Assembly (NCBI RefSeq): GCF_000964085.1
Contig: NZ_JZRB01000029.1
Location: 36,397-100,396 of the forward strand
Origin: Luteibacter yeojuensis
Lineage (GTDB): Bacteria; Pseudomonadota; Gammaproteobacteria; Xanthomonadales; Rhodanobacteraceae
DNA: 64,000 nucleotides
Reading direction: 5' to 3'
Shown: in pieces, positions 35,124 to 40,360 of the stretch
Numbering within the stretch: position 1 is the stretch's first letter
How the letters are laid out: the number at the start of each line of letters is the position of its first letter
Translations under genes and position numbers: made by a program
Notes under the pieces: model-generated
Seen by the model: only the letters and a program-made list of their open reading frames with translations
Told to the model about the DNA's origin: nothing
The model's database searches: none

Positions 35124-35630
35124 TTACTCGAGGTCGCCCAGCTTCGCGTTCTTGCCCGGCTCCTTGAGCCATTCGCCGACGTCTTCGCCGATTTCGTTCG
35201 TGATGCGCGACAGCACCGCGCAGCTGCCCTTGAAGCCGCCGAACGCGCCGCCCATGGAAATGCGGCGATCCTTGAAGCTACCGACGACCTGGCCGTCGAC
35301 AACCAGCTTGCCCTTCACGCCCATGGACTTGTGGTGGCCCATGAATGCGTTGCCATCGGCCACGGCCTCGTAGATCTCCAGCTCCATGACACGGCCCTGC
35401 GCCGGCGCCGCGTCGGTGGCCGCGTAGGACACCTCGATGCCGTTTTCCTTCGCATGCTTCGCAATGGCCGCGGGCAGCTCGTCGTCGAGCTTGCACTCGT
35501 CGAGCACGGACTTGGGGATATCGGCGTCTTCGTTGAAGGTCACCGGCTTCTTGATCGTGACGGCATCGCCTGCGAATGCGGCCGGGGCCACCACCAGCAT
35601 CGCCATCGCGGCGACGAACTGCTTCCTCAT
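35124..35630 (-). CDS. Small periplasmic hypothetical protein.
   Basis: A signal peptide 'MRKQFVAAMAMLVVAPAAFAGDA'. The likely start is the internal Met at 35630, not the ORF-track start at 35783. Confidence 0.5.
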   Translation of the reverse strand: MRKQFVAAMAMLVVAPAAFAGDAVTIKKPVTFNEDADIPKSVLDECKLDDELPAAIAKHAKENGIEVSYAATDAAPAQGRVMELEIYEAVADGNAFMGHHKSMGVKGKLVVDGQVVGSFKDRRISMGGAFGGFKGSCAVLSRITNEIGEDVGEWLKEPGKNAKLGDLE

Positions 35631-35749
35631 GTACTTCTCCTTGTCTTCGATACACGCCAGCTTGACGTAGCGCCCTCGCCCTATCGGCTGGGGCGCGTTG
35701 AACTTTAAAGTTTCTTCGGGCTCTTCGGGCACTGCGGAGAATGCGGGGG

Positions 35750-36545
35750 GCGTGGGTCGGTTCATTCGCGTTCGCGAATGCATGGCTTTAGCGGCTTGCG
35801 CCGCCTCAAGCTGGTGGGTGGCCGCGGGTCGGGGGCGGGCAGGCCCTTGGGGCCGCCAGTCGCGGACCTACGGACCGGGCCGTAGCGACGCTTTGGCGAT
35901 AACCGTTGCGCATGGCGGCCCTCCGCTCATGTCGGCCCCAAGGGCCTGCCCGCCCCCGAGTCGGTACGCCGCGTTTCGTGTGGCACAAGCCGGTGCTGCG
36001 TAGTGCCTGGCAGTTTAGCCACGGCGCGTCTTAGCGAGCGTCGTCGCATACGTGCGTGACGAGACCGGCGCGCGCGGCGTGGACCACGACGTATCGTGCG
36101 GCGGTCCCGACACCGCATCGCAAAACTCACCCGTGTGTCTGCGCTGTTCCCGGCGTTCGATGGCGCTGTTGGCACAGGGGCCCCAAGAGAATTTCGCGCC
36201 ATCGAGCATGGCCATCGTCGCCTCCCGCCGCAATCACGATGTCGCCCGACTTGGGAGATACGCTCCGAGACACATGCTTGTGCCCCACGAAACCGGGCGC
36301 GTGGACTCGGTGGCGGGTGGGTTCCTGGGGCCGACATGAGCGGAGGGCCGCGCAACGTCGCGTCATGGCGATAGCGCCGCTACCGCCCGGTCCGAAGGTC
36401 CGCGACTGGCGGACCCAGGGGCCCACCCGCCGCCGACTCGCGACACGCCACCAGCCTTAGGCGGCGCAAGCCGCTCAACGCACGCATTCGCTTCAGCGAA
36501 TGAACCGGTAAAGAAGCATCGCCAGCAAGCTGGCTCCTACAGGTG
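35750..36545. repeat. Complex nested imperfect palindrome. Two inverted arms of about 240 bp (35753–36000 and 36270–36490) sit around a roughly 270-bp core. Each arm starts with the palindromic unit TTCATTCGCnnnnGCGAATGAA, and a REP-like tail follows at 36485–36545. The whole looks like a MITE or REP cluster.
   Basis: I compared the two arms by reverse-complementing them by eye. Long matching blocks include 'GGCGGCCCTCCGCTCATGTCGGCCCC' and 'GCTTGTGCC(A/C)CACGAAAC'. The left arm also contains an internal inverted pair, GGGCGGGCAGGCCCTTGGGGCCG / CGGCCCCAAGGGCCTGCCCGCCC. Confidence 0.6.
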
Positions 36546-36575
36546 AGGCGGTGCGCGAATGCACGGCGGACTGCG

Positions 36576-37589
36576 TTAGAGCCTCGTGGTGCCGCGTGGA
36601 ACCAGGCGGCATGGCACCGTGATGCGCGGGTTGGCGGGTTCGTCCACGAGCAGCTCCACGCTACCCCGCGCCAGTGCCTCCATGTCCTGGTGGAACGTGG
36701 TGAGCTCGTACGCGCGCCACCCGGCCATCGGGATATCGTCGAAGCCCACCACCTGGATATCGCCGGGCACGCTGAGTCCGAACGCCTGGCGGATGGCATC
36801 CATGGCGCCCAGCGCGACAAGGTCGTTGACGCAGAACATGCCGTCCGGGCGGCTGCCGGCCGACAGCAGCTCGACGGCCGCGGCATGGCCTTCCTCGTAG
36901 CTGAAGCCGGCGAGCACGCGCTCGGGTTTCCGCCGGCCCCGCTCCTCGAGGCGCTTGAGGAAGCCGCGCTCACGCTCGCTCTGCGCCTGGCTGTCGCGTC
37001 CCGCGAGGTAGGCGATGCGCTTGCAACCACCGTCGACCAGCACGTCGGCCGCGACGCCGCCGGCGGCGCGGTTGTCGGTGGAAACCGTGCGCATGTTGCC
37101 CACCCGCTTGGAATTCACCGCGACGATGGGAATGCCGGCGCTTTCCAGCTTCCGCGCGACCTTTGCCGAATGGATCGCCATGGCGCTGATCACGCCATCG
37201 ATGCGGTAGCGGGAGAGCTCGCCCACGATGTCGTTGAGGTTGTCGTCGCTGGCCGTGTCTACCAGCATGATCTCCAGCCGGCGCTCGCGCAGCAGCCCGG
37301 TAACGCAGCGCAGGAACTCGGTGAAGAACGGGTTGTAGAAGCCACCCACCACCACCGCGATGATGCCGGAACGCCCCGTCTGCAGGATGCCCGGCAGCGC
37401 GTTGGGGCGGTAGTTGAGCTCGGCGGCGGCTTTCATGACGCGCTCACGCACCGGGGCGGAAACTGCGGCCGCGCCCGCACTGAAGACGCGCGACACCGTG
37501 GACTGCGAGACCCCGGCAAGGCGCGCGACGGCGGTGGACGAAGCCTGGGGGCGCGTGGCGCCAGGCGGGTTCGGCGGGGTGCGTGACAT
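36576..37589 (-). CDS. LacI-family transcriptional regulator.
   Basis: An N-terminal HTH 'VARLAGVSQSTVSRVF' and a periplasmic-binding-fold C-terminus. It is divergent from the PQQ dehydrogenase gene. Confidence 0.8.
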   Translation of the reverse strand: MSRTPPNPPGATRPQASSTAVARLAGVSQSTVSRVFSAGAAAVSAPVRERVMKAAAELNYRPNALPGILQTGRSGIIAVVVGGFYNPFFTEFLRCVTGLLRERRLEIMLVDTASDDNLNDIVGELSRYRIDGVISAMAIHSAKVARKLESAGIPIVAVNSKRVGNMRTVSTDNRAAGGVAADVLVDGGCKRIAYLAGRDSQAQSERERGFLKRLEERGRRKPERVLAGFSYEEGHAAAVELLSAGSRPDGMFCVNDLVALGAMDAIRQAFGLSVPGDIQVVGFDDIPMAGWRAYELTTFHQDMEALARGSVELLVDEPANPRITVPCRLVPRGTTRL

Positions 37590-40183: not shown

Positions 40184-40228
40184 GCCCCGGCGGCCAGGCA
40201 CATGCCTGGTCGCCGGAGCGTTTTTTTA
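40184..40228 (+). terminator. Rho-independent terminator after the PQQ dehydrogenase gene.
   Basis: GC-rich stem CCGGCGGCCAGGCA-catg-TGCCTGGTCGCCGG followed by TTTTTTTAT. Confidence 0.7.
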
Positions 40229-40249
40229 TGCGTTCGCGCACCGCCCTAA

Positions 40250-40310
40250 CTGTGGGAGCCAGCTTGCTGGCGATGCTTCTTTACCGGTTCATTCGCGAAC
40301 GCGAATGAAC
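40250..40310. repeat. REP-like palindromic element, CTGTGGGAGCCAGCTTGCTGGCGATGC...GGTTCATTCGCGAACGCGAATGAACC. It is a copy of the unit at 36485–36545 in reverse orientation.
   Basis: Direct comparison with 36485–36545. The 'GGAGCCAGCTTGCTGGCGA' core resembles Pseudomonas/Xanthomonas REP. Confidence 0.6.
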
Positions 40311-40360
40311 CGATGCCACGCACGCGGCTAACCCGATGGTTCGCGTAGACCCTTACTTCG

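Follow-up and report, generated by a model that had tools for sequence, protein, structure and literature searches.

A long intergenic palindrome of Luteibacter yeojuensis as a probable degenerate copy of an ISL3-type non-autonomous element with a conserved hairpin

What kind of DNA is the long palindrome that separates a LacI-family gene from the gene of a 168-aa secreted protein in Luteibacter yeojuensis? An initial annotation, made on the letters of a 64,000-nucleotide stretch (hereafter the window), had described an ~800-bp nested imperfect palindrome built from REP-like units and had proposed either a MITE or a structured RNA. We analyzed the layout of the palindrome, its homologues in genomes and metagenomes, its termini and the constraint acting on its hairpins.

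Layout of the palindrome and its surroundings

A repeat search of the window recovered the inverted arms in two pieces, 35758-35903/36362-36507 (146 nt, 82%) and 35915-35995/36271-36351 (81 nt, 81%), and BLASTN of the region against the window joined them into a single inverted match of 237 nt (79.3% identity, E 3e-55). The nested imperfect palindrome is confirmed as two 237-nt inverted arms with a centre of 281 nt between them; the arm length of ~240 bp given earlier also holds, but the identity of the arms is 79-82% rather than 85–90%. The internal inverted pair reported in the left arm is present (35829-35866/35922-35959, 89%) and the right arm, for which none had been reported, has one too (36304-36344/36399-36439, 78%). 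Both arms begin at their outer end, as had been seen, with TTCATTCGC-N4-GCGAATG, a motif that a scan of the window matched 6 times against 0.08 expected. The REP tail GGAGCCAGCTTGCTGGCGA is located at 36519-36537 and its inverted recurrence at 40255-40273; the recurrence had been placed at 40250–40310 after a terminator, and in fact BLASTN aligned 36485-36559 with 40307-40233 in inverted orientation (90.7% identity), just past the terminator T-run. Folding of both strands, suggested earlier as a check, gave each arm a far better fold than shuffled sequence (z -4.4 to -5.7). The lack of a transposase was verified as well, since Pfam matched none of the ORFs within the region or next to it to a transposase.

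Other parts of that first description had to be revised. The flanking genes, taken as convergent/divergent, are both on the minus strand, so that the element lies between tandem genes. The palindrome assigned to 35750-36545 is real, but the element that contains it is larger (Table 1). Moreover, the arms are not built from REP-like units: each is one conserved module of 200-240 nt, and the GTAG-type REPs are only accessory.

Table 1. Parts of the element in the window and neighbouring features
Feature	Position	Strand	Remarks
Whole element	~35710-36564 (855 bp)		between the LacI-family gene and the 168-aa gene
Left terminal segment, ISL3-like terminal inverted repeat	35710..35756	+	GTTTCTTCGGGC at 35710; motif scan, 79-end alignment
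Outside flank of left terminus			AT-rich ACTTTAAA
Left arm, A-type unit	35757..35994	+	~80% identical to ~80 Luteibacter units; subtype from alignments
Left-arm head hairpin	35763-35780	+	within left arm
Left-arm second hairpin	35791-35804	+	within left arm
Left-arm long hairpin	35829..35959	+	stem ~25 bp; conserved internal loops GCCGCCAGTCGCGGACCTACGGACCGGGCCGTAG, GGCGGCCCTCCGCTCATGTCGGCC; variable apical loop
Left-arm A-type extension	35960-35994	+	within left arm
Unique centre	35995..36275 (281 nt)	.	apparently non-coding
Right arm, A-type unit, inverted	36276..36508	-	repeat search, BLASTN, fold
Right-arm long hairpin	36304-36439		within right arm
Right-arm head hairpin	36485-36502		within right arm
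Right terminal segment	36509..36564	-	ends 11 nt from LacI stop codon
GTAG-type REP	36516-36542		CTGTAGGAGCCAGCTTGCTGGCGATGC; in right terminal segment
Degenerate right terminal repeat	36547-36564		GTGCATTCGCGCACCGCC; placed by analogy with the 40220 fragment
LacI-family gene	36576-37589	-	flanks element
Gene of 168-aa secreted protein	35124-35630	-	no Pfam match; flanks element
Solo end fragment of a second element (putative)	40220..40312	+	terminal repeat, GTAG-type REP and head hairpin

The arms of the left long hairpin are 89% complementary and its fold z-score is -5.5. The left terminus falls into the terminal-repeat columns of the alignment of 79 family ends described below and, as in other copies, is 47 nt outward from the head. 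Within it 9 nt are duplicated, which yields a second, perfect GGCTCTTCG at 35719. The right terminus was set where Table 1 gives it because the same sequence, at 40220, directly follows a terminator T-run. The PQQ glucose dehydrogenase gene has a terminator whose T7 run lies directly against the fragment at 40220-40312. Such a run is the typical target of the family, and the fragment is likely to be the solo end of another copy.

Some smaller features were observed around the left end. The 9-nt tandem duplication is TCTTCGGGC twice. The sequence GCGCGTTGAAC at 35695-35705 is the reverse complement of a terminus start. Only 4 nt (TTTAAA overlap) separate it from the left terminus at 35710, which places two termini back to back; this arrangement at 35695-35719 may be what is left of a second insertion, or it may be chance. 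The head start CGGTTCATTCGC (35758-35769), ~47 nt further inward, nearly repeats the terminal motif GGTTCATCGCG.

A coding function of the centre was considered and rejected. ORFs inside the element have no Pfam match, and the 281-nt centre shows no similarity to any family locus compared, including the centres of other elements. Its 66-aa ORF (36015-36215, minus strand) has a strong GGGAGG Shine-Dalgarno sequence 5 nt before the ATG, but neither a homologue among 5.8 billion proteins nor a Pfam match, and it is probably not a gene. The 168-aa neighbour, in turn, is 100% identical to a Luteibacter yeojuensis protein in the homology search.

Copies, termini and family assignment

One genome per species was scanned with the 19-mer CTCCGCTCATGTCGGCCCC taken from the arm, which returned 16 stretches from three Luteibacter assemblies. 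It also hit 7 scattered stretches in other genomes; none of these matches the arm over its full length, and in three of them there are matches of just 21-29 nt. Metagenome contigs were scanned with a second conserved block, the 21-mer CGCGGACCTNCGGACCGGGCC, giving 52 stretches; in 14 of these the block occurs as a pair, first on the plus and then on the minus strand, at a distance of 350-960 nt. BLAST with the arm collected ~80 units at ~80% identity from Luteibacter genomes and metagenome contigs; the count of further copies by BLASTN, which the initial annotation had named as a check, thus yields ~80 units at other Luteibacter loci. Distant BLASTN against 72,556 plasmids found nothing relevant to the element or its terminal segment, and a 15-mer scan of viral contigs gave 120 chance matches without real homology, the pattern being too short. 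As far as these scans show, the family is specific to Luteibacter.

Every unit is intergenic, and no recurrent protein was found beside the units. Two subtypes, A and B, differ in their spacer and 3' extension. At 32 loci two units are arranged head-out, always one A with one B, the A/A pair of the window being the sole exception. Three long contigs of one metagenome (L159, L199 and L200) have only the element in common, at ~90% over 830-943 nt, which indicates that the whole element is dispersed.

The anatomy of the canonical element was derived from alignments of ten complete pairs, their outer flanks and 79 ends. The element measures 0.8-0.92 kb. Outward of each arm there are a further ~47 nt, which end in the terminus GG(C/T)TC(T/A)TCGCG(C/T)ATTTCCGGGG, inverted at the two ends. 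The terminal consensus is GGTTCTTCGCGCATTTCCGGGG, with the variant GGCTCTTCGCGG in one locus (L167) and GGCTCTTCG at position 35719 of the window. Of the 79 ends, 28 have a GGTTCWTCGCG-like motif at 45-50 nt outward from the head, so that ~35% have a clear terminal repeat; 22 of these 28 termini adjoin an A- or T-rich 8-mer, often the T-run just after an intrinsic terminator hairpin. Repeats flanking the element were found as AAAGAAAA on both sides in L159 (8/8), as A8/A8 in L124, as a 7/8 match that includes one non-T base in L153, and as T7 in L184 and L188. Most of these duplications are homopolymer runs, which are expected beside terminators even without duplication, and only those of L159 and L153 are informative.

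Each unit, of 200-240 nt, consists of a head hairpin, a second small hairpin and a long hairpin of 130 nt. The start of the head hairpin, GGTTCATTCGC, echoes the terminus, and the head motif resembles a further binding site, in subterminal position, for the same putative protein. In most canonical copies the variable centre is also framed by two inner GTAG-type REPs in inverted orientation, CCCTGTAGGAGCGCGCTTGCGCGCGA. No transposase gene was found inside or beside any copy, among interiors of 222 nt to 3.97 kb. The family therefore shows the characters by which MITEs are recognized, that is terminal inverted repeats, small size without transposase, and dispersed copies with presence/absence polymorphism, its 0.8-0.92 kb being at the upper end of MITE size.

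The termini suggest which transposase family is involved. The inverted repeats of ISL3 elements begin GGCTCTTCG(CG) and their direct repeats are of 8 bp (PMC6305408, PMC5337628); for example, in ISArsp7 the inverted repeat is GGCTCTTCGCGG..., with CCTTTGCC as direct repeat (PMC6305408), and the inverted repeat of IS1096 is GGCTCTTCGCAC... (PMC5337628). AT-rich targets are preferred by ISL3 members (PMC12554700, PMC1590026), and a MITE of Microcystis aeruginosa has been put in ISL3 on the basis of its inverted repeat start and 8-bp repeats (PMC11448079). The ends of the Luteibacter family have these same marks: an inverted repeat beginning GGCTCTTCG, 8-bp direct repeats and an A/T-rich target. 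On the strength of its termini, duplication length and target preference, we consider it probable that the feature in the window is a degenerate copy of a Luteibacter-specific, ISL3-type family of non-autonomous elements (MITEs). Compared with ISArsp7, IS1096, IS31831 and the Microcystis MITE, the family end GG(C/T)TCTTCGCG corresponds to GGCTCTTCG(CG), and the 8-bp duplication, the A/T-rich targets and the MITE form without transposase gene are shared; in contrast, the inverted end region is ~270 nt long rather than 15-39 bp, a conserved 130-nt hairpin with a covarying stem is present at each end, there is an inner pair of GTAG-type REPs, and the element measures 0.8-0.92 kb. The ISL3-type MITE is a known kind, and this family of it is new; a family of ~0.9-kb transposase-less mobile elements such as this one has apparently not been described before.

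In the mechanism that we propose, an ISL3-family DDE transposase supplied in trans would bind to the termini, perhaps also to the repeated head motif, and would move the element, making target duplications of 7-8 bp in A/T-rich DNA, mostly in the T-tracts of terminators. The cognate transposase gene (PF01610, DDE_Tnp_ISL3) would be bounded by GGTTCWTCGCGCATTTCC.

Correia, ERIC and RUP elements are of 100-200 bp with short terminal repeats, transposase-less, near-palindromic and intergenic, and they are often co-transcribed, so that their transcripts can fold into long hairpins. The Luteibacter family is likewise transposase-less, nearly palindromic and intergenic; we know of no MITE of the Correia/ERIC/RUP type with two distinct subterminal hairpin modules so constrained.

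For the copy in the window, an empty site was found in a relative. Contigs L144/L145 from JGI metagenomes have the same gene order (PQQ glucose dehydrogenase / LacI / 168 aa / 414 aa), with the neighbour protein 86% identical, and the spacing between the LacI gene and the 168-aa gene is 50 nt there against 945 nt in the window; the window thus holds ~0.85-0.9 kb more at the orthologous site. Another candidate terminus, GGCTCTAACGCAG, overlaps the LacI stop codon and was rejected: the LacI gene of the relative ends at the same position, and the likeness is probably a coincidence. The copy itself is not canonical. Both of its ends are A-type, a pairing seen nowhere else, and it has no target duplication, with ACTTTAAA on one side and GGCGGACT on the other; the inner REP pair is absent from it. 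These traits, together with the foreign centre, suggest that it is probably a rearranged, immobile fossil. Its membership in the family rests on the homology of the arms and of the left terminus, the right terminus being degenerate. The MITE proposed at the outset is consequently supported by the further copies, by the terminal inverted repeats and 7-8-bp duplications of the family and by the empty site in the relative; the target-site duplication that was also to be looked for exists in family members, but not in the window copy.

RAYT is a Y1 tyrosine transposase of the IS200/IS605 superfamily, and REP-like doublets spread by it via single-stranded DNA can persist vertically for a long time. 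The palindrome could accordingly be a REP/BIME cluster or a giant REPIN, a reading to which the true GTAG-type REPs at 36516-36542 and 40250-40275 and the inner inverted pair CCCTGTAGGAGCGCGCTTGCGCGCGA of canonical copies lend themselves; moreover, the long hairpin is made of a 38-nt sequence and its inverted counterpart, each arm with a small palindrome of its own, GGCCCTTGGGGCC. The hairpin, however, was never seen apart from the head and terminal segments, unless cut by contig ends or deletions, and the conserved core GTAG (CCGTAG) is not followed by a conserved palindrome. The family elements also have terminal inverted repeats and target duplications of 7-8 bp, and to our knowledge Y1 transposition of the IS200/IS605 superfamily yields neither. 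With REPINs (PMC3337134, PMC3733652) the elements share conserved arms with a variable spacer. The likeness to RAYT-associated REPINs and BIMEs (GTAG-type REP dimers, Di Nocera et al. 2013) extends to a location between genes, inverted doublets that form hairpins and have a variable spacer, GTAG-type REPs within, mosaic palindromic units, long persistence and conserved cores; the Luteibacter family differs in that it has terminal inverted repeats and target duplications, a unit 5-10 times the length of a REP, and a hairpin that is no independent repeat. We regard this origin as quite unlikely.

Conservation of the long hairpin

The set used for covariation comprised 66 distinct units, which are not independent copies. 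Its consensus structure pairs 99% of cells, and 12 of the 17 pairs of the long stem have changes on both sides (103 cells), a result that 0 of 500 shuffles reached and no slid control came near. The A and B units differ at stem positions, and the pairing proper to each is kept; from this we infer that the local hairpin is the maintained structure. A fold-back of the whole element as the selected structure was considered and is unlikely, since the stems of A and B differ and yet pair internally.

The loops vary remarkably little. In 20 independent nearest-neighbour pairs the core loops have 0.013 differences per site, against 0.116 in the spacer and 0.131 in the apical loop, that is they change ~10-20 times less than either. 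Blocks that were not used for finding copies differ from the consensus by 0.014-0.025 per site, compared with 0.28-0.30 in variable segments, and the constancy of the loops holds in copies with decayed termini. Internal hairpin loops that are better conserved than the termini are not predicted by simple transposon decay. On sequence grounds, the hairpin could have a role at the DNA level (binding of the transposase or of a host protein, or palindrome-templated repair) or at the RNA level.

Two further ideas about the hairpin were discarded. A structured apical loop was rejected, the fold energy of its 33 nt being equal to that of shuffled inner sequence (z near 0). An integron attC site was considered on account of the bulged hairpin and variable loop, but the hairpins are inverted and not arrayed one way, and the alleles described below break at different bases. 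As a separate observation, in the window (35866-35878) and in all units (alignment A4, columns 109-121) the most variable base of a 33-nt block that is otherwise almost invariant is the N of CCTNCGG; this N is the centre of a possible mini-hairpin GGACC-TNC-GGACC, with a GNA triloop on the other strand.

The same data bear on the structured-RNA candidate, in which each arm is the gene of a structured RNA of ~130-200 nt that acts as RNA, or a cis-acting copy of it, and the palindrome is formed by two inverted copies. The compensatory changes in 12 of 17 stem pairs, the 99% of cells paired, controls of both kinds far from these values, the 10-20-fold smaller change of the loops compared with spacer and apical loop, the single-sequence fold (z -4.4 to -5.7) and the position of the most variable base at a possible triloop centre all agree with an RNA. 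Compensatory change can, however, also be gained by DNA palindromes through templated repair, and the apical region is unstructured. The units lie at transposon ends, in both orientations relative to host genes. Rfam 15 gave no match at gathering score in the whole window and, with E up to 10, only a chance miRNA match in 35500-36800; no promoter-like site was found in the element, and its only terminator-like site is the REP. Variable G-U pairs number 7 against 20 A-C mismatches, a weak bias towards the opposite strand that comes from non-independent copies. As for the original RNA proposal, the hairpin does show compensatory changes, but a match in Rfam, promoter or terminator signals and a clear strand bias in wobble pairs were not found, and we consider an RNA origin very unlikely.

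A local, immobile inverted duplication private to the locus, to which the missing target duplication, the unique centre and the only A/A pair would point, is refuted as the origin of the units by ~80 homologous units at unrelated loci of several genomes and by arms that are 20% diverged from each other, the same as from copies elsewhere; extremely improbable as a whole, it could survive only as an account of the facing A-type ends in the window.

A variable defence-gene locus and the significance of the family

Copies of the ISL3-type family also differ in what lies between their units. One chromosomal locus was recovered from four sources (L138:3410-7813; L180:17-2302; L171:13494-13641 with L151:1-457; L173), with flanks 96-98% identical and the same orthologous B and A units, but with three contents. 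The first allele has 222 nt between the units (contig Ga0157369_10001976); the second has 1.95 kb (L180), encoding a DUF6988 protein and a TIR-domain protein; the third has 3.97 kb (L138, L173), with two small ORFs and the gene of an ATPase-TOPRIM nuclease of the OLD family (PADLOC Old, 3.6e-55). The alleles cease to be homologous close to the foot of either hairpin on its inner side, and the exact base varies. At another locus (L169:1521-3504) a head-out B/A pair encloses 1.5 kb with the gene of a 309-aa secreted protein, for which Pfam and PADLOC gave no match.

Long facing inverted repeats are fragile, and this fragility may be enough to explain the variable interior. Among orthologous copies, ~330 nt between the two long hairpins is deleted in L131:2602-2873 relative to L196:5241-5852, and the A unit present in L195 is lost in L165; these inverted repeats are recombination-prone. 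A bolder idea is that the 130-nt hairpins are a selected cis-element, a protein-bound junction of folded DNA or RNA, framing a recombination-prone capture slot for foreign genes, notably those of anti-phage defence; we hold it to be unlikely, and if it were true the family would be one of portable cassette sites as well as of MITEs. TIMEs and MITE-framed composites (PMC4133298) offer a comparison, because there too non-autonomous ends frame unrelated DNA, as at the Luteibacter locus with 0.22, 1.95 or 3.97 kb. TIMEs are derived from Tn3, with 38-bp inverted repeats and 5-6-bp duplications (PMC4133298); in Luteibacter no cargo-bearing copy was seen at a second locus.

For the annotation of these genomes, the odd 0.9-kb intergenic palindrome and similar gaps in Luteibacter can be read as a MITE family that targets the T-tracts of terminators. 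In L. yeojuensis the main present effect of the window copy would be to place 0.85 kb of hairpin-rich DNA and RNA between the LacI-family regulator gene and the downstream gene, where it is a likely source of polar or insulating effects. The ~80 diverged copies are moreover a clean natural data set on a transposon-borne hairpin with compensatory change and strong loop constraint. A conserved, covarying hairpin of this kind is unusual and worth follow-up; its structure appears to be read by the transposition machinery or by the host. If the defence-gene slot proved general, variable defence loci would gain a new kind of landmark in these elements.
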